Shown here: piece after piece, positions 13,623 through 30,890 of the stretch
How the letters are laid out: each line of letters starts with the position of its first letter
Numbering within the stretch: position 1 is the stretch's first letter
Assembly (NCBI GenBank): GCA_955652585.1
Contig: CATPBF010000009.1
Span: 1-40,580 of the forward strand
Origin: Candidatus Dormiibacterota bacterium
Lineage (GTDB): Bacteria > Chloroflexota > Dormibacteria > Dormibacterales > Dormibacteraceae
Length of the DNA stretch: 40,580 nucleotides
Direction: 5' to 3'
Made by a program: the position numbers and the translations under genes
Notes under the pieces: generated by a model
What the model was told of the DNA's origin: nothing
Database searches by the model: none
The model's input: only the letters and a program-made list of their open reading frames with translations

Positions 13623-13666
13623 TCTTAACAGGCAGGGTTCTCGTCGTCAGTTTGATTGCGGATGCT
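13623..13666 (+). promoter_or_regulatory. 17-nt box (copy D, 15/17 match) + 21 nt + -10-like GATGCT
   Basis: TCTTAACAGGCAGGGTT begins 5 nt after the lon stop. GATGCT at 13661-13666 is followed after 10 nt by an in-frame GTG (13677) of the DUF559 ORF, with no SD. Confidence 0.4.
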
Positions 13667-14129
13667 GCCGTTTGCAGTGCCGCTATCCCGAGTCGATCTA
13701 GCCCGATATCTGCGACGCACGATGAGCGGCATCGAGTGGGACCTGTGGTCGCGGATGCGCGCCAAGCAGGTGGCTGGTTTCAAGTTCCGCCGCAAGGCAT
13801 TGATCGGACCTTACATCGTTGATTTCGCGTGCCTGTCAGCGCGCCTGGTGGTCGAGATCGGCGGCGAGATGTTCGATCGGTCACCGCCTGGTGACGCGGC
13901 CCGGGCAGCCTGGCTCGAGTCTCGAGGCTTTCGCGTCATACGGTTCACACCCGTGGATGTTGCCGAGCGCCTTCCCCACGTTCTGGACACCATCCGCGTC
14001 GAGCTCGCCGCGCGACCGCGGTTTACGTCGTCCTATGCTCGGAGAGAGCCTAACGGCGCTGGGCCCGGGCCAGGATTTTCTCGTGCGCGGCGATTTCGGC
14101 GGCGTCGTCCAGTGGCGCGAGCTCCGTGA
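13656..14129 (+). CDS. DUF559 (Vsr-like endonuclease fold) protein with a degenerate core motif
   Basis: ARYLRRTMSGIEWDLWSRMRAKQVAGFKFRRKALIGPYIVDFACLSARLVVEIGG...GFRVIRF matches the DUF559 pattern. The start may be 13662 or 13677. The last ~80 nt overlap gatD on the opposite strand. Confidence 0.8.
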   Translation: MRMLPFAVPLSRVDLARYLRRTMSGIEWDLWSRMRAKQVAGFKFRRKALIGPYIVDFACLSARLVVEIGGEMFDRSPPGDAARAAWLESRGFRVIRFTPVDVAERLPHVLDTIRVELAARPRFTSSYARREPNGAGPGPGFSRARRFRRRRPVARAP

Positions 14130-17921: not shown

Positions 17922-18872
17922 CTACATTCGGGCCAGGAGCACATCGAGACCCAGCTCTGGGTCGATCTGCCCCGACTTCACCTCCCATTCGTAATCGCGG
18001 ATCGCTCGCAAAGCCGCTTCCAGGCTGTTCGGGTCTGTATCGCGGGCGGTCTCGAATGCCTTCTGGAGAACAAAAGGGTGCTCGCTCATCTGCGACTTGA
18101 CGTCGGCCAGCGACTCACCCCGATCCTGTCGAGCGCGCACGGCCAGAACAAGTGCGACGTGCCGCGCCATACGGTAGGCGACCGAGGTCGGCTGGATCCC
18201 GCCCCGGGCAAGCCCGCGAGCGATGTTGAGCGCCTCTGGGGTCGGGTGCGGGAGCAGGTTGTCGGTGAGCTTGAAGATCTCGTCCTCGCGTCCTCCCGCG
18301 AGCAGTTCGCTTATTACCCCGGCAGTCAGCTTCGAGCCTGACGCCTTGTACGCGGCGAGCTTAGCCAGCTCGGAGTCAATCACGGTGAGGTCCGGAGGCG
18401 TCACGCGCACGACCTGGGCTGCGATCGCGGGCGTCAGACCATGATCGTTTGCTCGCTTGGCGGCCCACTCGCCAAGGGCCCTCCCTTTGAGATGCACCAT
18501 TTCCTCGACCGTGCCGCCGGCAGCGGTCACGGCCTTCGCGAGCCGGTTGGTGGCCCCGAGCCGGCCTGCCACTGTGATCAGGACCCGGGTCGTGGCCGGG
18601 ACATCGGCCAGTGCGGGCGCGAGGCTTTCAGCGCGCGCGGCGGGCACCATCGTCGCCGCGACGACTCGATATGGATCGAGGAACGGCGCCTGCAGCACGG
18701 AATCCTGGAGGCGCGCGACGTTGAGGCCCTGGCCCTCCAGGCGGTCGAAGCCAAAGTCGGAGACCAGCTCCGACCGCCAGGCGTCAAGGGTCGTTCCAGC
18801 CTTCTCGTCGACAAGGAAGCGCTCCTCGCCATGGAGAAGGAGGATGGCGACGTTGCGTTTGGGATTCGCCAT
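17922..18872 (-). CDS. holA: DNA polymerase III delta subunit
   Basis: Starts MANPKRNVAILLLHGEERFLVDE at the ATG at 18872. It occupies the conserved position after comEC and is convergent with rpsT. The track's start at 19085 is an arginine-rich extension. Confidence 0.85.
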   Translation of the reverse strand: MANPKRNVAILLLHGEERFLVDEKAGTTLDAWRSELVSDFGFDRLEGQGLNVARLQDSVLQAPFLDPYRVVAATMVPAARAESLAPALADVPATTRVLITVAGRLGATNRLAKAVTAAGGTVEEMVHLKGRALGEWAAKRANDHGLTPAIAAQVVRVTPPDLTVIDSELAKLAAYKASGSKLTAGVISELLAGGREDEIFKLTDNLLPHPTPEALNIARGLARGGIQPTSVAYRMARHVALVLAVRARQDRGESLADVKSQMSEHPFVLQKAFETARDTDPNSLEAALRAIRDYEWEVKSGQIDPELGLDVLLARM

Positions 18873-18910
18873 GTCTGTACTGCTGCGATCGTAACCGCGC
18901 CCTGCGCGTT

Positions 18911-21151
18911 TCACATGGGAAGCGTGATCGTGCCCTCCTGGTCCGTGCGCAAGACCGTCGGAGGGAAACCGCGCGCGAGCCGCCCCGAGGAAAGCGAAGC
19001 GACCAACTGCGCGGTCGACGTCGCGTGCTCCAGGTCCGGCGAAAGTCGACTGCGGCCACCGGAGGGCAGAAGCAGATACGAACAAGTGCCTGCGAGGCGT
19101 CCGGTGGCGACGGTCTGAGCATCGACATCGAGGTCGCTAAGGTCGCAGAAGCTGCGGCCCGATTGAGCCACCACGCGTAGTCCGAGGTAAGCGGCGCCGA
19201 CCTGATCACCAGGGGCGCCTGGCTCTGGTGATAACACCTCGAGCCTGAAACCGGCTGACTCGAAGAGGTCGCCGGCGCGTGCTCGCACGACGCGGGCGCC
19301 GCGGGCGACAGCCTCGTAAGCGGCGGTCCGCCATGCTGACCCGGTGAGCTTAGCGTCGGGGATCAGCAGAGTCCCCGCCGCCCGATTCAGGCCGGCGAAA
19401 CCCGCAATGTGGCCGAGGCCAGGAGCGGTGATAGCGACCAGGTCTAATCGGGCCTGCCAGGGTGGAAGAATCTGCCCAAGCTCGTCGCTCAGCCGGGCGG
19501 GGCTTGGCCCGGCGTCGACCAGGATGGCTCCTTGCGGGCTCCGGAAGAGGACAGCCTGCCCGTTGCCGACGGCGAGCACGCTGACCTGTGGTGGCGCATT
19601 CGCCCACATGCACAGGGCGGTGCCGGCGATCAAGGCCGGGGCCGCGATCGCGCCGGCCAATGCCAGGGAGCGGCGTCGCGGGCTGACGTGGCCGGCGCTG
19701 AAGACGGCGCCCAGACCGGCGTAATAGGCGAGGCCCGCCCAGGTCGGGAATCGGACGACCGGGATCGCGGCCGCAGGCAGCCGTGCCAGCAGATAAGACA
19801 CCTGTTCGATGTAAGCGAGCAGCCCGGCCATTGGCAGCGCCGCGAGCCTGGCCAGCTCGGGAAAGAGTGAAAGGGGGCCAAGGGCGAGGCCGGCGGCGAC
19901 GATCGCCGGGAGGATCGGCAACACCAACGCGTTTGCGACGGGAGCCACAGGTGAGAGCAAGTGGAAATCGGTAGCCATCATCGGGAGGGTGCCAACCAGC
20001 GCTGCGCAGGTGACCGCGAACGGCTCTCGGACGATGTGCGGCAGCCACTGCAGGCGCGACTCGATGCAGGGCGTGAGCAGGATGATCGCGGTCGTGCCTG
20101 CGAACGAGAGTTGGAACCCTACGTCCCACGCGAATTCTGGCCGCCAGGCGAGCATGGCGGCCGCGGTGGTCGCGAGTGAAGTCCATACGTGGGATGGTCG
20201 ACCGAGGTTGGCGGCGGCGATGGCCAAACCTCCCATCACTGCCGCGCGGATCGCCGCTGGGGTGGCGCCGCCGGCGAGGGCATAGAGACCGATAAGACAA
20301 AGAGCGGGCCAGGTCGCGTATCCGCGGAGGACGGGCCGCAGCGCGCCCTGAACAATGCGCGCGAAGACGGCGACCTTAAGGCCGCTGAGCACCAGCAGGT
20401 GAACGAGCCCGGTCGCGATGAGCGCTTGCTGGAGCGTGGGGGGGATTCCCTGCCTAATGCCGAGCACCAGGCCAAGGAGGACAGCCGCATGTGGCGCGGG
20501 CAGCGCAGCGACCAGGGCGGCGATATAGCGGGCTCGCAGCCACGACGGCAATGCGGCGATTCCGGAGGCGGGGTTGCTCACGTTGATCCCGGTCGTGTCC
20601 AGTTCGAGGTATGCATGGCGCTGGGCCAGGTATGCGCGGCGATCGAATGACGGCAGGTCCCGAGGCAATACGAGCTTGCCGGTGGCGTTCAGCTGATCGC
20701 CGATGCCGGCCTCCGCAGGCCCTCGCCACCGCACCATCAAGTTGCCGACGCCAACGACCTGCGAGCCGCCGACGAGAATGACATCGGGTTCGACCAGGAC
20801 TTCCGAGCCTCCCGCAGCCGCCCGACTGTCGTCGGCGACATGGCCGGTAATGGTCGCGGTCTGCCCCGCCAGGGCAACCGCGCGGGTCGCGACGCCCGGA
20901 TCGAAGGCCGGGAGCTCTGCGCGCCCGACGCCGAGCAGCGCTGCCATCAGAGCGAGCGCGAGCACCGCGGGCCGGACTGCGAGCGCGAGGGCCAGGCATG
21001 GAATGGCAAGCGCGACCGCGAGCGCGCCGACCCACGATTGCGACGGCGCAATCACCACAGCGGCCGCCAGCGCGACCGACCATGAAACCGCGATCACGAG
21101 AAGAGGGACCCGCGCGAGCGAGCGGAGGTCGCGGCTGCGGGGCTCGTTCAT
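18911..21151 (-). CDS. comEC: ComEC/Rec2 DNA internalisation channel protein (C-terminal MBL domain degenerate)
   Basis: Polytopic competence domain (GLVHLLVLSGLKV, FQLSFAGT) plus a C-terminal beta-lactamase-fold region. Its ATG forms an ATGA overlap with the comEA stop. Confidence 0.9.
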   Translation of the reverse strand: MNEPRSRDLRSLARVPLLVIAVSWSVALAAAVVIAPSQSWVGALAVALAIPCLALALAVRPAVLALALMAALLGVGRAELPAFDPGVATRAVALAGQTATITGHVADDSRAAAGGSEVLVEPDVILVGGSQVVGVGNLMVRWRGPAEAGIGDQLNATGKLVLPRDLPSFDRRAYLAQRHAYLELDTTGINVSNPASGIAALPSWLRARYIAALVAALPAPHAAVLLGLVLGIRQGIPPTLQQALIATGLVHLLVLSGLKVAVFARIVQGALRPVLRGYATWPALCLIGLYALAGGATPAAIRAAVMGGLAIAAANLGRPSHVWTSLATTAAAMLAWRPEFAWDVGFQLSFAGTTAIILLTPCIESRLQWLPHIVREPFAVTCAALVGTLPMMATDFHLLSPVAPVANALVLPILPAIVAAGLALGPLSLFPELARLAALPMAGLLAYIEQVSYLLARLPAAAIPVVRFPTWAGLAYYAGLGAVFSAGHVSPRRRSLALAGAIAAPALIAGTALCMWANAPPQVSVLAVGNGQAVLFRSPQGAILVDAGPSPARLSDELGQILPPWQARLDLVAITAPGLGHIAGFAGLNRAAGTLLIPDAKLTGSAWRTAAYEAVARGARVVRARAGDLFESAGFRLEVLSPEPGAPGDQVGAAYLGLRVVAQSGRSFCDLSDLDVDAQTVATGRLAGTCSYLLLPSGGRSRLSPDLEHATSTAQLVASLSSGRLARGFPPTVLRTDQEGTITLPM

Positions 21152-21747
21152 AGCGTCAGGTAGCGGCGCGCGACGACGTAGTCGGCTTCGCTCATGCCGA
21201 GGATGTCGACGAGCTCGCGTGTGTTTTGAAAGCCGCCGAAGCTAGTGCGGTAGTCAATGACGTCCTGCGCGAAAGCGCTGGTGAAGCCCGGGACGACCTC
21301 GAGCTCTTCGAGCGTGGCGGAGTTGAGGTTGGTCCGCACGATGACCGTGGTCCCGGCGGAGCCTTTAGCAAATGGGACCTTGATCTGTTCCCCATCCTTG
21401 AGGCTGCCGGCCAGGTTGGGGAGGCGAGTGATGTCCGCTTCCACGGAAAGCCCGCCGGCCGAGGCGATGGCGTCGTAGACGCGATCCCCGCGCTTCATAC
21501 GGTAGAGGCCGGGATGCTCGACCGCGCCGACAACGTGGACGAGTAGGCCCGCGGGAGCGGGGACGTCGACGTTGCCGGCGGCGGCGGCAGCGGCAGCAGC
21601 TGAATCTGCGGCGCCCACCGGGCTGGCGTGCGCGGTCGCCGACGTGTAGAGGTAGGCTGCTACGACGGCGCCGATCCCAAGCAGGACCGGGACGGCGAGG
21701 GCGAGCAGAGGCTTCCAGCCGGGAATGAAGCTGAGGTAGTTGCGCAT
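21148..21747 (-). CDS. comEA: ComEA DNA receptor (membrane anchor + SLBB + helix-hairpin-helix)
   Basis: An N-terminal membrane helix, an SLBB-like GLYRMKRGDRVYDAI and the C-terminal HhH region NLNSATLEELEVVPGF...A..VIDYR. There is no SD before the ATG. Confidence 0.9.
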   Translation of the reverse strand: MRNYLSFIPGWKPLLALAVPVLLGIGAVVAAYLYTSATAHASPVGAADSAAAAAAAAGNVDVPAPAGLLVHVVGAVEHPGLYRMKRGDRVYDAIASAGGLSVEADITRLPNLAGSLKDGEQIKVPFAKGSAGTTVIVRTNLNSATLEELEVVPGFTSAFAQDVIDYRTSFGGFQNTRELVDILGMSEADYVVARRYLTL

Positions 21748-21754
21748 GTCGGCG

Positions 21755-21798
21755 AGGCTAGGGCGCAGGCGTGCGGGCGAAAACCCAGCCTGTTAAGG
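21755..21798 (-). promoter_or_regulatory. 17-nt box (copy A) + 21 nt + TAGCCT (-10, TAnnnT) + 7 nt + comEA ATG
   Basis: The minus strand reads CCTTAACAGGCTGGGTT-TTCGCCCGCACGCCTGCGCCC-TAGCCT-CGCCGAC-ATG. This geometry fits a leaderless transcript starting at the A of the ATG. Confidence 0.5.
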
Positions 21799-21887: not shown

Positions 21888-22012
21888 AGGTTGACTGGTT
21901 ACCAATGGTGGCCCAGTGACAAACACGGGGCCCGGCGGGCCCTAAAGAGTATGCGGAACGCTTTGACTGTTCAGACGTGACCTCCGGCGGGTAATGGACG
22001 TTGGATCTTCAT

Positions 22013-22453
22013 ATGAGAGCTGTAGTTGTGCTGCTCCTGATTGCGGCGACCGCCGCTTGTGGTGCGTATCGATTTCCGAGCGAGTCCCCGTCTGCGACCG
22101 GGACGGTGACCGGCCACGTGATGGCGGTTCCGTGCGCGCCCGTCCAGCCGGCGAACCAGCCACCGTGCGCCGGCCGGCCGGTGCCTGGTTTGGAGATCGA
22201 TTTCGCCGGCAATGGCACCGCCGTGAGCACCCGAACCGACTCGAGCGGCGCCTATTCGATCCAACTGCCCGCCGGGACCTGGAAGGTGAGCTTCAAGACC
22301 TTCATGCGGATCGTCAGCGGCCCGCCCACGGTGACCGTCCAGGCGGGTTCCAGCGTGGTTGCCGACTATCTCGTCGACTCGGGAATTCGCGTTCCGATCG
22401 CTAAGGAACCATCCCAATCCCCCACCCTCCCAGTGGGGGTGCGGGCAGCGTAG
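22013..22453 (+). CDS. small lipoprotein with a carboxypeptidase-regulatory-like (beta-sandwich) domain
   Basis: Starts MRAVVVLLLIAATAAC (lipobox), then GTVTGHV...GLEIDF...TRTDSSGAYSIQLPAGTWKV. The ATG at 22013 is preferred over the TTG at 22001. Confidence 0.7.
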   Translation: MRAVVVLLLIAATAACGAYRFPSESPSATGTVTGHVMAVPCAPVQPANQPPCAGRPVPGLEIDFAGNGTAVSTRTDSSGAYSIQLPAGTWKVSFKTFMRIVSGPPTVTVQAGSSVVADYLVDSGIRVPIAKEPSQSPTLPVGVRAA

Positions 22454-22491
22454 TGCGGGCGGCCCGAAGGCCGCAACCCAGCCTGTTAAGG
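22447..22491 (-). promoter_or_regulatory. 17-nt box (copy B) + 22 nt (contains a GCGGCC-TTCG-GGCCGC hairpin) + TACGCT
   Basis: A perfect box starts 5 nt after the leuS stop. No ORF start lies at the expected distance. It points antisense into the 3' end of the lipoprotein gene. Confidence 0.3.
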
Positions 22492-22496
22492 CTGCT

Positions 22497-24956
22497 TCAG
22501 GGGACCAGGTTGATCAGCTTGTCCGGGACGTAGATGACCTTCGACGGCCGGCCGCCGTTGAGGGCCACGCGGACCTTCTCGCTCGCCAGTGCCAGGGCGA
22601 GCGCTTGCTCCTCCGACAGCCCGGTCGCCGCCGTCAGCCGGTCCCTCACCTTGCCGGCGACCTGAACCACCAGCGTCATCTGCGGCTCAGCCGCGGCGGC
22701 GGCGTCGAACTCCGGCCAGGGCGCGTCCGCGAGCAAGCCGCGCTCAGGTCCACCCTCTCCCAACCGCTCCCACATCTCCTCGCTGACGTGCGGTCCGATC
22801 GGGTTCAACAGCTTGACCAGGGTGCGCACCGCGGAATCCCACACCGCATCGCGCGCTCCGCCGCGCTGCAGGTAGTCCTGCATCGCGTTGGCGAGCTCCA
22901 TCAGATACGCCACCGCGGTGTTGAAGCGCAGGTCGTCGTAGTCCTCGGTCACCTTCCTGACCGTCTGGGCAACCTTCCGGCGCAACAGCGCTTGATCGGT
23001 ACCGGCCGCCGATGCGCTGGACACCTCGATCGACTGCGGCTCGAGAACCAGGCGCCACACCCGTTGCAGGAAGCGGACCACGCCATGCAGTCCTTGATCG
23101 GTCCATTCCACATCCTCTTCGGGGGGACCGATGAACATCTCGTAGATGCGCCCGGCGTCGGCGCCCTCCTTCTCCACCAGCTCGTCCGGCGACACGCCGT
23201 TGCCGGCGGACTTCGACATCACCTGTCCGAAGCGCTTGACCATGCCCTGGTTGAAAAGTCGAATGAACGGCTCCGAAACGTCGAGCATCCCCGCGTCGAA
23301 CAACACCTTGGCGAAGAACCGCGAGTAAAGCAGATGCAGGATCGCGTGTTCGACCCCGCCCGTGTACTGGTCGACCGCCATCCAGTGGCTGGCGAGCTCG
23401 GGATCAAAGGGCTCCTTTTCGTCGTGGGGGCTCGCGTAGCGCAGGAAGTACCAGGACGAATCGACGAAGGTGTCCATCGTGTCGGTCTCACGCCGGGCCT
23501 CGCGTCCGCACTTGGGGCACGTGGTGCGCCAAAACTCGGGGTTGTCGGCGAGCGGCTTGTATTCCTTGGGGAGCAGTACAGGCAGCATGTTCGTGGGCAT
23601 GGGCACGATGCCATCGACCTCGCAGTACACGACTGGAATCGGGCAGCCCCAATACCGCTGCCGCGAGATGAGCCAGTCGCGCAGGCGGTACTTCACCGTC
23701 CGCTTGCCCAGGCCTTTCTCTTCGAGCCAGGTCACGATGCGATCGAAAGCGGTCTTGCTGTCGAGGCCGTCGAACTGGCCGCTGTTCACCATCACACCAG
23801 GTCCGACGTAGGCCTGGCTGAGGTCGTCGCCGGCGCCGCCAGCGGGCGCGATGACCTCGCGGATCGGCAGGTTGTACTTCCGCGCGAAGTCGAAGTCGCG
23901 CTCGTCGTGCGCCGGCACAGCCATGATCGCTCCGGTGCCGTAGGTCATGAGTACGTAGTCGGCGACCCAGATCTGGATCTTCTCGCCGTTGACAGGATTG
24001 ATGGCGAAACCGCCGGTGGGAACGCCGGTCTTCTCGCGTTCGGTCGAGAGGCGGTCGATCTCGCTCGCCTTGCGAGCTTTGGCGACGTACTCGCGCACCC
24101 GAGCACGGTTGGCGTCGGTTGTCACTTTCTCAACCAGCGGATGCTCGGGAGCCAGCACCATGAAAGTCGCGCCGAACAAGGTATCGGGTCGGGTCGTGAA
24201 GATGCGAATCGACTCCCCCTCGTGCCCGTCCACTGGGAAATCGACTTCCGCACCCTCGCTGCGGCCGATCCAGTTCGTCTGCATCAGCCGGACCTTGTGC
24301 GGCCACTTATCGAGCAGCTGTAGGTCGTTCAGCAAGCGCTCGGCGTAATCGGTGATCTTGAAGAACCACTGCTCGAGATCTCGCTTCTCGACCTCGACGT
24401 CCGCATGCCGCCAGCAGCGGCCATTGATGACCTGCTCGTTGGCCAGCACCGTTTTGTCGACCGGGCACCAGTTGACCGGAGCCATGGCGCGGTACGCCAA
24501 CCCGCGCTCATAGAAGAGCAGGAACAGCCACTCCGTCCACCGGTAGTAGTCCGGCAGGCAACTCGTGACCTCGCGGTCCCAGTCGTACAGGATCCCCAAC
24601 ATCTGGAGCTCGCGCTTCCCCTTCGCGATGTTCGCGAGCGTCCATTCTTGCGGGTGCATGTTTCCGCGCTTCATGGCCGCGTTCTCCGCGGGCAGGCCGA
24701 ATGCATCCCAGCCAAACGGGTGCAGCACCTCGAACCCCTGCATGCGCTTCATGCGCGCCAGGACATCGCCCATCACGTAGTTTCGGGCATGTCCGACGGT
24801 CAGATCGCCTGATGGATACGGGTACATCACGAGGTCGTAGTACTTGGGCTTTGGCGACCTGTCCGACGCCTTCATCACCCCGCGCTCGGTCCAGATCTTC
24901 TGCCACTTAGGCTCGATCTCCTGCGGAACGTAGGTACTACGCCGGGTGATGCTCAT
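22497..24956 (-). CDS. leuS: leucine--tRNA ligase
   Basis: Starts [26 protein letters not shown], with a HIGH-type region ([14 protein letters not shown]) and a KMSKS variant (VMSKSAGN). The ATG at 24956 is preceded by GGAAG in an AT-rich spacer. Confidence 0.95.
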
Positions 24957-25811
24957 GTGAACTTCCAATTCTATTTTTCTACGCCGGCGTTCGATCAGAG
25001 GGCCGAGTTCGTGGCCGACGATCGCACCGAGCACGAGCGCCGCACCCGCCCCCTGCAGCGCGTTCAGACGCTGGCCCGCCAACACGATCGCCGCGGCCAA
25101 GGCCCAGGCGGGCTCGGTGGCGAGGATGAGCGCGGTGCGGCTGGCGTCGAGGTGTGCCTGGGCCCAGGTCTGGACGTAGAACGCGACCGCCGATGCGAAC
25201 ACACCCGTGATCACGATCGCGAACCACACCTGCCCTGATGGGAGGTGGGTCAGCGAAGGGGTGCCGCCGATACTGAACAGCACCGCGCACGTCGCCATCT
25301 GCACCATCGCCAGTGGCGCGGCGCGCAGGCCGGGCGACCATTGGCTCAGAAGGACGATATGCAGCGCATAGAGGACCGCGCACACCATGACGAGAAAGTC
25401 GCCAAGTCCAACTCCGGCCCCGCCGCCCGCGAGCATCAGGGTTCCGATGAGCGCAAGGACGACCGCGATCACGGTCCGGCGATGCACCGAGACCCCGAAG
25501 AGCCGATCGATCAAGGGAGTGAACACGACGAACAGGCCGGTGATGAGGCCGGCGTTGCCGGGGCTGGTCGTCGTCTGGCCGACCGTCTGGAACAGGTAGC
25601 CGCCGGCGAGCACGGTCCCCGCGACGACGCCCACCCAAAGTTCGCGTCGCGACGGCAGCCTGTGCACGATGACCACCATCACCAGCGCAGCGAGCAGAAA
25701 CCTTAGCTCGAGGAAAGGCAGGACCGGGTACTGTGTGATCGCGTCCTTGACCAGGACGAACGTCCAGCCCCAGACCGCGGTCACCATCAATAGAAAGAAG
25801 ACGTAGATCAA
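24957..25811 (-). CDS. EamA/DMT family transporter, with no stop codon before leuS (in-frame read-through)
   Basis: About ten hydrophobic helices with two EamA-like halves ([12 protein letters not shown]..., [19 protein letters not shown]). The frame continues directly into the leuS ATG. The real start is probably the ATG at 25787. Confidence 0.8.
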
Positions 25812-29132: not shown

Positions 29133-29795
29133 ATGCTGGGCTGGATCGTACTTGCGATCGTCATCCTCGTGGTTCTTTGGCTTGTCTTCACCTACAACGG
29201 GCTGATCTCAGCCCGGAACCGGACCCAGGAAGCCTGGTCGGAGATCGACGTCGAACTCAAGCGACGCCACGACCTCATCCCCAACCTTATGAACACGGTG
29301 CAGGGCTACATGGGGCACGAGCGCGGCACCCTGGAGGCCGTCACCAATGCCCGCGCCAACGCCGTCGCGGCGGGCGCAACCGGCGACCCGGCCAAGATCG
29401 GCGCCGCCGAGAACATGCTGAGCCAGAGCCTGCGCAGCCTGTTCGCGGTGTCGGAGAACTACCCCGACTTGAAGGCGATTACCGCCTTCACCAACCTGCA
29501 GGAGACCCTGACCGCGACCGAGGACAAAATCGAGTTCTCGCGGCGCTTCTACAACGGCAACGTCAGGGACTACAACATCAAGCTGCAGACCCTGCCCACT
29601 TCGCTCATCGCCGGGGCGCTCGGGTTCAAGGCGTTCGGCTTCTTCCAGGCCGACGAGGGTGACCGGGCGGTGCCGGTGGTGAACTTCGGCAACTCGCCGT
29701 CGGCGGGCGGCCCTCCGGGGCCAGGCTCGCTGCCTCCGGCGGCTGGTTCGGGGCCGCCCCCGATGGGCTCGTCGGGGCCTCCGCCACAGAGCTAG
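29133..29795 (+). CDS. lemA: LemA family protein with a Pro/Gly-rich C-terminal tail
   Basis: An N-terminal membrane helix, then YNGLISARNRTQEAWSEIDVELKRRHDLIPNL...ENYPDLKA...RRFYNGNVRDYN. Confidence 0.9.
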   Translation: MLGWIVLAIVILVVLWLVFTYNGLISARNRTQEAWSEIDVELKRRHDLIPNLMNTVQGYMGHERGTLEAVTNARANAVAAGATGDPAKIGAAENMLSQSLRSLFAVSENYPDLKAITAFTNLQETLTATEDKIEFSRRFYNGNVRDYNIKLQTLPTSLIAGALGFKAFGFFQADEGDRAVPVVNFGNSPSAGGPPGPGSLPPAAGSGPPPMGSSGPPPQS

Positions 29796-30835
29796 CCACC
29801 GGCTGACTTCGCCCAGTCGGAGTCAAACCGCGAGCTGTACGCCGACACGGCGCGCGGGTCCTCCGTTTCGATGTCGAGCTCGTGATTGACGCCCAACCCC
29901 GACAGCGTCCAGTTGGCAGAGCCCAGGATCAACTCGCCGTCGAAAAGTCCGATCTTCGCGTGGAGCAGCGCGCCCTTTGGGACCGGATACCAACGCACCG
30001 ATACGCCGCTCGATGAGAGCACCGCGTACGCATGGCGGTTGTAGGGCTGGTTGGGGTCAAGAAGGACTCTGACCAGCGCTCCGCGACGGTGGGCGGCCGC
30101 GAGGCCGGCAATGACCTCCGGATCGGTGAACGTATAAACCTCGACCAGCGCGCGTACTCGCGCACGTCCGAGAGCACCCTCGAGAATTGCCCTGATCTCT
30201 TCGCCCGGCGCGGTCTGGGCAATCTGCGACGGCGCCGGCGCAAGCGGCGCCGGGTGGCCTCCGGCCAGGTCCCAGTCCTGCACGAAGATGCGCGCCAGGC
30301 GCGAGATCTCTGCCTGCACGCGCGTCTCGAGGACGTAATCGTGGTTGCGGCTGCTGTGCGCGCCCCAGTTCATGCCGCCGACAACCGCCTCGCCGTCTGC
30401 GATCAAGAGCTTTACATGGTCGATCTGATGGCGCACATCATCGACCGGGTACACGCGCTCGGGTACATGGAACGTGTCGAGGAGTGCGGCCGACCGACGG
30501 CTGGCGTTCACCGTTGGATCTGTGATCACCTGCACCGCCACGCCTCGCGCATATGCCGCGCCGAGCTCGGACACGAGATCTCGCCGGCCCAATTCGTACA
30601 TTTCCACCATGACTCGGGTGCGAGCTGATTCGATGAGCTTCGCGACCAGCTGGAAGATGTCGGCGTCCTGCCACAGAGTCACGGGCTCGGGGCGCCCCGA
30701 CCCCGATGTCGGAAGCGCCCCGCCCACACCCGGCGCCTGCGCGACCTGAGCTGCGTTGGCGATCGGCGCCGCGGTGGGGGGAACCGAGCACGCCGTCAGG
30801 CCAACCGTCAGCAGCAGGAACGCAAATCGCGCCAT
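29792..30835 (-). CDS. secreted lipoprotein of the phospholipase D / Nuc superfamily (two HKD motifs)
   Basis: Starts MARFAFLLLTVGLTAC (lipobox). HKD motif 1 is HVKLLIADGEAVVGGMNW and HKD motif 2 is HAKIGLFDGELILGSANW. There is no SD before the ATG. Confidence 0.85.
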   Translation of the reverse strand: MARFAFLLLTVGLTACSVPPTAAPIANAAQVAQAPGVGGALPTSGSGRPEPVTLWQDADIFQLVAKLIESARTRVMVEMYELGRRDLVSELGAAYARGVAVQVITDPTVNASRRSAALLDTFHVPERVYPVDDVRHQIDHVKLLIADGEAVVGGMNWGAHSSRNHDYVLETRVQAEISRLARIFVQDWDLAGGHPAPLAPAPSQIAQTAPGEEIRAILEGALGRARVRALVEVYTFTDPEVIAGLAAAHRRGALVRVLLDPNQPYNRHAYAVLSSSGVSVRWYPVPKGALLHAKIGLFDGELILGSANWTLSGLGVNHELDIETEDPRAVSAYSSRFDSDWAKSAGG

Positions 30836-30846
30836 GGCGAGAACGA

Positions 30847-30890
30847 ACGGTATGGGTACGAAACAAGGGCGCCAACCCAGCCTGTTAAGG
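30847..30890 (-). promoter_or_regulatory. 17-nt box (copy C) + 21 nt + TACCGT (TAnnnT) + 11 nt + ATG of the PLD-family gene
   Basis: The minus strand reads CCTTAACAGGCTGGGTT-GGCGCCCTTGTTTCGTACCCA-TACCGT-TCGTTCTCGCC-ATG. The box begins 10 nt after the stop of the upstream DUF62 gene. Confidence 0.45.

Follow-up and report, generated by a model that had tools for sequence, protein, structure and literature searches.

The 17-mer CCTTAACAGGCTGGGTT, called the box in what follows, is fairly likely to be the specificity element of a class of promoters in the Dormibacterota, which would be read by an activator and would switch on a competence-type regulon. It was met in a 40,580-nt stretch of DNA (the window) from a Candidatus Dormiibacterota bacterium, GenBank assembly GCA_955652585.1, contig CATPBF010000009.1, positions 1-40,580. 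The Dormibacterota were once called AD3 and are abundant soil bacteria; to our knowledge the phylum has no cultured, genetically tractable member. We know of no competence cis signal or master regulator in the high-GC Terrabacteria. The box would be a signal of a competence-type regulon with a new sequence, and presumably with a new factor, in an uncultured phylum. Its conservation, its geometry and its target set are established, and its role as a functional, promoter-linked regulon signal can be held with high confidence. For the activator nature of the factor that reads it, the promoter layout leaves the chances about even.

The window, with a G+C content of 62-69%, holds three exact copies of the box, all on the minus strand: copy B (21782..21798), copy C (22475..22491) and copy D (30874..30890). 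Copy A, on the plus strand (13623..13639), has the form TCTTAACAGGCAGGGTT and matches at 15/17 positions. The same coordinates had been given in an earlier note on this DNA, which also placed the copies beyond chance; none of 100 dinucleotide-preserving shuffles of the window contained a match, even with up to three mismatches. A scan of the whole window with a position weight matrix returned these four sites only, at 30-33 bits, and the gap of 8-30 bits was empty. No homology was found among the flanks of the four copies, as the note had said, and the -10-like hexamers that it listed at 21-22 nt (TAGCCT, TACGCT, TACCGT and GATGCT) can be read in the sequence. Also as it described, a start codon follows the hexamer shortly in three copies, clear Shine-Dalgarno (SD) sequences exist in the examples quoted from other window genes, and Pfam agrees on the identities of ComEA, ComEC, HolA, the two-HKD phospholipase D (PLD) protein and the DUF559 protein.

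Copy B is found before comEA, at a distance of 16 nt past tRNA-Gln. Its -10, TAGCCT (21755..21760, minus strand), stands 21 nt after the box and 7 nt before the comEA ATG (21745-21747, minus strand), which is predicted to be leaderless. The operon comEA-comEC-holA (17922..21747, minus strand) comprises comEA at 21148-21747, comEC at 18911-21151 and holA, which ends at 17922. Pfam assigns SLBB and HHH_3 to ComEA, Competence and DUF4131 to ComEC, and DNA_pol3_delta_C to HolA. An orthologous copy-B box was found in every comEA locus examined. Copy D, 10 nt past the stop codon of a SAM_HAT gene, is followed after 21 nt by TACCGT (30847..30852, minus strand), 11 nt before the ATG at 30833-30835 of a two-HKD PLD-family lipoprotein gene (29792..30835, minus strand). 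Its product has two Pfam PLDc_2 domains and a lipoprotein-like N-terminus. The nearest NCBIfam models are the nuclease families DrmC and NucT, each under its cut-off, and the nearest chains in a PDB sequence search are Zucchini/MitoPLD, NucT 6ehi and Nuc 1byr; judged by its sequence, the protein is a probable secreted nuclease. Copy A, 6 nt past the stop codon of lon, is followed after 21 nt by GATGCT (13661..13666, plus strand), a non-consensus -10 that lies 10 nt before the probably leaderless GTG start, at 13677, of a DUF559 gene with a Vsr-like fold (13677..14129, plus strand; Pfam DUF559, E = 2.9e-29; NCBIfam PRK09767). Copy C, 6 nt past the stop codon of leuS, sits between the convergent genes leuS and that of a CarboxypepD_reg lipoprotein and has no protein gene downstream; its -10, TACGCT (22447..22452, minus strand), follows after a spacer of 22 nt.

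The same arrangement is found far outside the window. The exact 17-mer, searched in one genome per species, occurred in at least 119 stretches, nearly all from metagenome-assembled genomes (MAGs) of Candidatus Dormiibacterota, with about 60 assemblies among the matches listed. These MAGs include older 'Chloroflexi CF_xx' bins and a few otherwise-labelled bins, with identical gene contexts. About 15 of the matches listed fell in low-GC genomes of other phyla; these have no -10 hexamer and are the chance matches to be expected. A metagenome scan, soil included, used a pattern that was degenerate at box positions 1, 9, 10 and 12 and required the hexamer; it gave 120 further loci, about 115 of them GC-rich with matching contexts, and the copy A variant TCTTAACAGGCAGGGTT was also met in metagenomes. 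A scan of viral contigs yielded only four matches, of 46-54% GC and without a -10, which were judged to be chance. The literature held no match to the motif string, in line with the earlier note's remark that the box is not a described motif, and no relevant paper on Dormibacterota promoters or competence was found.

The consensus 21 nt past the box, taken over 107 GC-rich exact copies from Dormibacterota genomes, is T(81) A(94) g c c T(100), and neither the spacer nor the sequence that precedes the box is conserved in these copies. Counted over Dormibacterota loci that total 798 kb, TAnnnT begins 21 nt after the exact box in 77 cases and 22 nt after it in 5, with about none at other offsets. 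The fixed geometry proposed from the window thus extends beyond it. Copies with one to four mismatches show the same offset, and from five mismatches upward the signal is lost in noise. The promoters therefore carry a sigma-70-type -10 in a fixed position, TAGCCT being the commonest form. Start codons follow 6-12 nt past the hexamer in the comEA, PLD, comM, PrgI-like, cpaB and 132-aa-protein classes, so that the layout expected of the leaderless or near-leaderless mRNAs proposed earlier is seen in six target classes. In the same loci, TAnnnT is markedly overrepresented at 6-12 nt before the first start codons of long open reading frames (ORFs) with high G+C at third codon positions. This points to leaderless mRNAs, which, to judge from these sequences, appear to be common across the Dormibacterota.

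Most of these loci had come via the box itself, and for this reason further loci were fetched by protein only, with ComEA, ComM and CpaF as queries; they serve as tests free of ASCERTAINMENT bias. ComEA homologues of 75-81% identity led to loci L244-L249, in which the synteny comEA-comEC-holA is kept. The box stood upstream of comEA in six of six loci (forms CGTTAACAGGCTGGGTT and CCTTAACTGCCTGGGTT), downstream of leuS in five of five (for example TCTTGACAGGCGGGGTT) and upstream of the PLD gene in two of two. Each of these boxes had TAnnnT at 21 or 22 nt, and a lon gene that lacked a DUF559 neighbour had no box. ComM homologues led to loci L250-L252; comM was boxed in all three and also in L012 (4/4). 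In L250-L252, the box is followed after 21 nt by TAGCGT or TAACGT and, 6-7 nt further, by a predicted leaderless start. These boxes end in GGGCT, a site-specific form also seen in the first comM case. Finally, CpaF homologues led to loci L253-L255, each with a single box, before cpaB, and with TAAGGT at 21 nt (3/3). This cpaB heads a complete Tad-type operon that also has cpaF, two genes of TadB/C size, three small ones of which one matches TadE and, in a single locus, cpaE.

The protein-fetched loci hold one to three boxes per 16-19 kb, all at promoters, and no box of correct geometry was seen elsewhere in their approximately 145 kb and 165 genes. The earlier note had suggested that ssb and pilus genes might be enriched for the box, and a box does precede both a tail-less single-stranded DNA-binding protein (SSB) gene and the Tad operon. 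The competence reading had predicted boxes at pilus genes and at comM, and both predictions are borne out. The box as a general strong-promoter module of the phylum, without regulon meaning, would fit its many small-RNA targets and some genes unrelated to DNA uptake. However, only four of about 40 window genes carry it (rpsT, glyS, recO, prs, glmU, lon and others do not), the approximately 145 kb of protein-fetched loci are boxed solely at predicted targets, and 109 ordinary leaderless promoters do without it, which makes such a module very improbable.

A census of 248 box copies gave about 15 recurring target classes. The largest is a family of small G-rich RNAs (about 70 copies, plus 7 of a longer variant). 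It is followed by the PLD lipoprotein (26-29 copies), comEA (25) and a protein of 82-90 aa with two transmembrane (TM) segments and an SD-containing leader (23), after which come a TrbL_4/VirB6-like protein and an M23 peptidase. Further classes are a monocistronic 132-aa membrane protein (20), a G-rich RNA after leuS (15-17, with copy C of the window among them) and an SSB of 115 aa that ends in ...KKPEEAAA (11). This SSB is regarded as SsbB-like because the acidic tip is absent. Smaller classes are a 95-aa PrgI/VirB3-like protein followed by a VirB4 ATPase (9), ParA (7), a YgjP-like peptidase (4), a 55-aa ribbon-helix-helix (RHH) protein (4), DUF559 (3), a cpaB-like SAF protein followed by CpaF (3), a secreted protein (2), a DUF222-HNH protein (1) and comM (1). 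The Pfam families found on targets are SSB, TrbL_4, M23, PrgI, ChlI/Mg_chelatase, SAF, YgjP and P-loop_TraG, and the VirB4 ATPase matched PDB 4ag5 at E = 7e-29 as well as TrwK. Of the parts of a competence regulon, those under the box are the DNA receptor and channel (ComEA/ComEC), a pilus in the form of the Tad operon, with modules similar to type IV secretion systems (T4SSs) boxed too, and, of the processing genes, those for the tail-less SSB and for ComM.

The T4SS-like modules recur in constant surroundings. In L027:554-2611 (plus strand), a box precedes genes for the 86-aa two-TM protein, the TrbL_4/VirB6-like protein and the M23 peptidase; then a box variant, often TCTTAACAACCTGGGTT, precedes the 115-aa tail-less SSB. 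This order is repeated in L017, L018, L041, L085, L099, L106, L119, L177 and L229, and the SSB is followed by a protein of 168 aa that is highly conserved and whose C-terminus is RHH-like. In at least ten species, the module lies in a common housekeeping synteny (168-aa protein, amine oxidase, UppP). The genes of the PrgI/VirB3-like protein and VirB4 occur as an isolated boxed pair (L180:1667-4685, minus; L116:4618-7243, minus; L150:8931-11742, plus) whose conserved neighbours encode a protein of 196 aa, an alpha/beta hydrolase and a membrane protein of small size. Neither a relaxase nor a coupling protein was seen near the pair, which in L116 adjoins tRNA-Lys and an integrase-like gene. The conserved synteny and neighbours indicate that the modules are chromosomal and vertically inherited rather than parts of a mobile element. 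A phage or mobile origin of the box was considered and rejected, as the viral matches are only chance and the T4SS-like module with SSB keeps its housekeeping synteny.

It was also considered whether the box might be a fragment of a dispersed repeat, such as a repetitive extragenic palindromic (REP) sequence, a miniature inverted-repeat transposable element (MITE) or an attachment (att) site, or else a 3' element of the upstream gene. The window copies do lie 6-16 nt after the co-oriented lon, tRNA-Gln, leuS and SAM_HAT genes, and copy C is followed by a hairpin. However, flank homology, terminal repeats and a palindrome are all absent, the hairpin is limited to close relatives, and viral contigs lack the box except for the four chance matches. 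In at least 60 species, the box keeps its orthologous positions, and the flanks have drifted until their identity is almost random. For ortholog pairs with less than 60% protein identity, the identity is 0.90-0.98 in the box, 0.37-0.40 in the adjacent 21-nt spacer and 0.28-0.37 in the upstream flank; these values carry an ascertainment caveat, the loci having largely been found via the box. The orientation of the box and its distance to the -10 and the start codon are strict, whereas the earlier note had expected random orientation and distance of a REP or MITE fragment. Taken together, a repeat or a 3' element is hardly conceivable.

Four more specific candidates were rejected. Against an att site next to a tRNA gene, or repeats of an integrated element, at copy B, the box does not overlap the tRNA, and the order tRNA-Gln, box, comEA is conserved in the phylum. 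A 3'-end or terminator element would need a common structure, which was not found, and the orientation of the box is tied to the downstream -10 and start. DNA uptake sequences and uptake signal sequences occur by the hundreds or thousands in a genome, in either orientation and often within genes or terminators; the window of 40.6 kb has only four copies, all in promoter geometry. UP elements are A/T-rich tracts found between -40 and -60 in strong promoters, for example those of rRNA. The box has 8/17 A+T, is of specific mixed sequence without A/T-tract character and is confined to about 15 target classes. A search of the collected Dormibacterota loci found neither recA nor rRNA operons.

How the box might work can be considered from its fine structure. 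In 62% of copies it is followed by G, and A never occurs at this position, which suggests that the final TT and this G occupy the start of the -35 hexamer, with a 17-nt spacer to the -10. The -35 positions past TT are unconserved and class-specific, starting with TTG.. in small-RNA, PLD and ssb promoters, TTTTCG in comEA and TTCC.. in three membrane-protein classes. Within the box, the blocks CTTAACA and GGGTT(G) are near-invariant; their centres are 10.5 bp apart, which places them on one face of the helix, and they are neither direct nor inverted repeats of each other. The box as a whole is not a palindrome and is symmetric only in the 3-bp arms AAC...GTT. The TTAACA inside it was rejected as a TTGACA-like -35, since no conserved hexamer follows 17 nt downstream, and a generic scan for E. 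coli-type promoters called none at box sites. With the assumed start site, the box spans about -51 to -35 and is centred near -43/-42. On the same assumption, it matches a class II position, which abuts the -35 near -41.5 and keeps a fixed phase with the -10.

The box promoters were also compared with ordinary ones. In 109 box-less leaderless promoters from the same loci, the hexamers are richer in A/T (TAAAAT, TATACT, TAGGAT), and the -35 region has no signal at all. Box promoters can therefore be described as a weaker -10 with an extra 17-bp element. There is no conserved -35 either, which might reflect the 'poor core' trait of class II promoters; for these reasons the box is read as the probable site of a dedicated activator. 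A class-II-type activator is favoured by the site that abuts the -35, the fixed phase, the weak-looking core promoters and the unconserved -35 hexamer. In the mechanism proposed, the final two T's of the box would stand where the -35 hexamer begins, and transcription would start about 7 nt beyond TAnnnT, often at the start codon, giving a leaderless mRNA. A dedicated trans-acting factor, most likely an activator bound beside or over the -35 on one helix face, would read the box and recruit RNA polymerase to otherwise weak promoters. The regulon would be switched as a unit that contains comEA-comEC and holA, the Tad/Flp pilus, the apparently domesticated T4SS-like modules, the secreted NucT/Nuc-like nuclease, the recombination helicase ComM, the tail-less SsbB-like SSB, nuclease-fold proteins, ParA and the multi-copy small G-rich RNAs, and its output would be natural transformation.

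Two other ways of reading the same geometry have to be weighed. The box could be a repressor operator that overlaps the -35, in a stress regulon of the SOS or radiation/desiccation response motif (RDRM) type. The promoters would then be active in themselves, and the uptake and processing genes would stay off until a signal took the repressor away. Since the box holds the TT with which the -35 begins, polymerase and not the factor could be the source of the strict 21-nt spacing, and the motif is near-invariant and high in information; besides, ssb, comM, nucleases and parA are typical of damage-inducible regulons. In contrast, the site is non-palindromic, the -35 past TT is unconserved and varies by class, and the box-less promoters, which work without a -35, have stronger -10s. 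For this last reason, box promoters look dependent on help and not self-sufficient, and a repressor seems unlikely. Alternatively, the box could be read by RNA polymerase through a dedicated alternative sigma factor as master regulator, the part that ComX or SigH plays for competence in Firmicutes, or through a lineage-specific extension of sigma or of the C-terminal domain of the alpha subunit, as an UP-like element. The fixed spacing, the distinct flavour of the -10 (TAGCCT vs TAAAAT/TATACT in box-less promoters) and the lack of weak sites, as with narrow-regulon sigma factors, would fit, and alternative sigma factors serve competence elsewhere (PMC8467076). Nevertheless, 17 conserved bp exceed the contacts of the helix-turn-helix of sigma region 4, the blocks lie upstream of the canonical -35 with GGGTT 21 nt from the -10, and the box does not resemble the A/T tract of known UP elements. 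Too many conserved bp upstream of the -35 and a -10 that remains the housekeeping TAnnnT make this reading rather improbable.

Several points also weigh against the activator-read competence regulon. The census derives mostly from loci that were chosen for carrying the box. A fixed -10 spacing would also be expected if the box merely held the start of the -35, and for this reason spacing alone is no proof of activation. For the site of a transcription factor, the asymmetry, the information content of about 30 bits and the near-absence of weak copies are unusual. ParA, the YgjP-like peptidase, the 132-aa membrane protein and the small RHH protein have no known role in DNA uptake, and about 35-40% of the box copies drive small RNAs without an assigned function. 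The regulon claim of the earlier note thus stands for the uptake, pilus and DNA-processing targets, which are boxed, and not for several others, which have no obvious link to uptake. Its competence interpretation as such is supported by sequence outside the window, through the geometry, the leaderless starts and the content of the regulon.

Known competence signals offer parallels in function. CRP-S sites, used with Sxy/TfoX, define the competence regulon of Pasteurellaceae, Vibrionaceae and Enterobacteriaceae. Like the box, they are long cis sites that lie just before or overlap the -35 and mark comEA-type, comM, ssb and pilus genes, which they make dependent on a dedicated factor, as the box would too; the contents of the two regulons are strikingly parallel. 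However, the CRP-S site is a 22-bp palindrome (TGCGA-N6-TCGCA) bound by a CRP dimer, whereas the box is 17 bp long, asymmetric, unrelated in sequence and found in another phylum. ComK boxes of Bacillus subtilis are activator sites upstream of the -35 and include those of the comE operon and ssbB. They consist of paired AAAA-N5-TTTT dyads with variable helical spacing, and no A/T dyads surround the Dormibacterota box. In streptococci, the cin-box or com-box, with sigma-X (ComX), marks the late competence genes, among them comEA/EC, ssbB and those of the pilus (PMC8467076). There, a short conserved promoter signal defines the competence genes, as is proposed for the box. It differs in being 8 bp long, with TACGAATA at the -10, and in its use of an alternative sigma factor, while the box lies at -51 to -35 and a TAnnnT -10 is retained. 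The box fails the sequence definitions of the CRP-S site, the cin-box and the ComK box, and the parallel lies in the proposed function.

In geometry, the nearest system is probably the class II marbox of MarA, SoxS and Rob, an asymmetric site of about 20 bp that overlaps the -35 and whose two sub-sites are bound by one monomer. The fixed orientation, the fixed distance to the -10 and the sub-sites one helical turn apart are shared, but sequence and regulon are unrelated. In lineage and style, the nearest one is probably the PafBC-dependent RecA-independent motif of Actinobacteria, which lies near -26, directly upstream of the -10, at DNA-damage genes. It shares the high-GC Terrabacteria, the fixed distance to TAnnnT and the often leaderless genes of DNA metabolism; the Dormibacterota box is placed further upstream and precedes uptake, pilus and T4SS genes.

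With respect to the machinery, transformation in Micrococcus luteus depends on a Flp/Tad pilus (PMC4322843, PMC8467076), and the Dormibacterota regulon likewise combines ComEA/ComEC with a Tad pilus. The M. luteus study sought regulators of the comEA/EC promoters and reported no cis motif (PMC8467076). In Helicobacter pylori, a ComB T4SS works with ComEC (PMC13395361). The Dormibacterota regulon resembles this system in joining ComEA/ComEC, T4SS-like parts and a NucT-like PLD nuclease. NucT itself belongs to the ComB/ComEC system of H. pylori. No common cis signal is known in either organism, whereas in the Dormibacterota both kinds of machinery have one box in common. Patescibacteria have chromosomal, relaxase-less, monoderm-type T4SSs, sometimes beside comF, recG or radA (PMC12102498). 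They are a sister lineage with domesticated T4SS genes, and the Dormibacterota modules similarly lie in conserved chromosomal synteny. No common promoter signal has been described for them, in contrast to the scattered, box-linked modules of the Dormibacterota.

A more far-reaching view is possible, if tentative, in which a phylum-specific factor unrelated to ComK, ComX and Sxy-CRP co-activates a hybrid uptake machine together with ComM, SSB and functional G-rich RNAs. The machine would join ComEA/ComEC to the Tad pilus, to T4SS parts that are domesticated and lack a relaxase, and to a NucT-like nuclease at the surface. The small G-rich RNAs, with their tendency to form G-quadruplexes or R-loops, could then act as regulators or as sites of recombination or priming; the G-quadruplex-associated small RNA at Neisseria pilE offers an analogy. 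In practical terms, a box of about 30 bits with strict geometry gives a computable definition of the regulon for any MAG. The regulon predicts joint work of the Tad pilus, T4SS relics, ComEA/EC, ComM, the tail-less SSB and the secreted PLD nuclease, which bears on the use of domesticated T4SSs in the clade of Chloroflexota, Dormibacterota and Patescibacteria. The box could also be used as a bait sequence for its regulator and as a marker by which to read the induction of competence in soil metatranscriptomes. The new small G-rich RNA family, co-regulated with DNA-uptake genes, calls for an explanation.

This box-driven, multi-copy family consists of RNAs of about 60-80 nt at L058:5676-5770 (plus), L053:2225-2319 (minus), L079:4045-4139 (plus) and about 70 more loci, with none in the window. 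Their layout is a 5' hairpin with the loop (N)GGGGGAGGG(N), a single-stranded GGGAGGGCCC and a terminator-like hairpin, and the middle bases of the two G-motifs co-vary by identity (A/A, C/C, T/T). Several paralogues occur per genome, at positions that are syntenic across species. In a MAFFT alignment, the 3' arm of the 5' hairpin was misaligned, and RNAalifold did not recover this hairpin; arm complementarity was therefore counted directly against an arm-swap control. The hairpin is backed by more than 45 different complementary arm pairs, with a mean stem of 5.7 bp vs 3.8 bp in the control. G-quadruplex-type motifs occur in 43 of 140 box-downstream windows of 110 nt, compared with 0.8% of random windows, and Rfam searches of the RNAs downstream of the box, by gathering threshold and by E-value, found no family match. 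A partly palindromic, A/T-rich, TTTTCGAA-like tract lies in the middle of the spacer in 18 of 59 small-RNA promoters and is rare in other classes (examples are L089, -1984; L091, -5133; L079, +3996; L019, +7697). It may be a second operator.

The RNA predicted to start from copy C in the window is also G-rich. Its 5' part (22413..22441, minus strand) has a C-tract, CACCCCCAC, followed by GGGAGGGTGGGGGATTGGG, whose four G-tracts form a canonical G-quadruplex-type motif. The motif is kept in L034, L040, L042, L045, L068, L102, L110 and L128. Within the RNA region 22345-22446 (minus strand), the C-tract can pair with the G-motif (CCCCCACU/GGGUGGGG; folding z = -2.2), and the RNA overlaps the convergent lipoprotein gene in antisense at the gene's 3' end. 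The spacer that separates copy C from its -10 holds a perfect hairpin, GCGGCCttcgGGCCGC (22458-22473, minus strand). This hairpin is limited to the close relatives L110, L102, L042 and L128 and may be the leuS terminator nested within the next promoter. Further along, just upstream of tRNA-Gln, there is a terminator-like hairpin, GGGCCCGCCGGGCCC (21928-21942, minus strand), with a T-rich tail after it; it could end an antisense transcript of about 500 nt begun at copy C. In the CarboxypepD_reg lipoprotein ORF (22001-22453, plus strand), the last ~20 codons (…PIAKEPSQSPTLPVGVRAA*) overlap the complement of the G-motif. The relative's ORF in L034 stops earlier (…DSGIRVSN*), so that the window's tail is probably run-on and not conserved coding sequence.

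Some observations on individual targets may be added. The RHH-like protein of about 55 aa (…KAPVVKQLYRLNVEPRVVDQLAKLA…) follows an exact box in L007:1513-1824 (plus), L039:4014 (plus), L077:252 (plus) and L064:3716-3963 (minus). Its promoter has a non-consensus hexamer, GAAACT or GAGAAT, and an SD-containing leader. From its sequence, it is a possible autoregulated component or a candidate for the box-binding protein; no Pfam family was found for it or for the 168-aa protein beside ssb. In L036 (-6103), L073 and L222, the soj-like parA comes after a G-rich-family small RNA and has a degenerate box of its own between the two (for example CCTTAACATCTGGGGGT, 22 nt, TACAAT and a leaderless ATG), and in L117 (+5126), an exact box stands directly before parA. 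Full-length ComM has about 500 aa, and the best 120 ComM homologues (P0121-P0240) all have 395 aa or fewer. In L251:1213-3498, a 291-aa comM is followed 16 nt on by the gene of a large serine recombinase. Given the short homologues and the adjoining recombinase gene, it appears that in many Dormibacterota an integrated element splits comM; the alternative is that assemblies break at this place. In the window itself, upstream of copy C, an ORF of 1104 aa (22497-25811, minus strand) joins an EamA transporter domain to a complete leucyl-tRNA synthetase; in relatives, EamA and leuS are two overlapping genes, so that the ORF in the window reflects a fusion or, alternatively, a change of frame.

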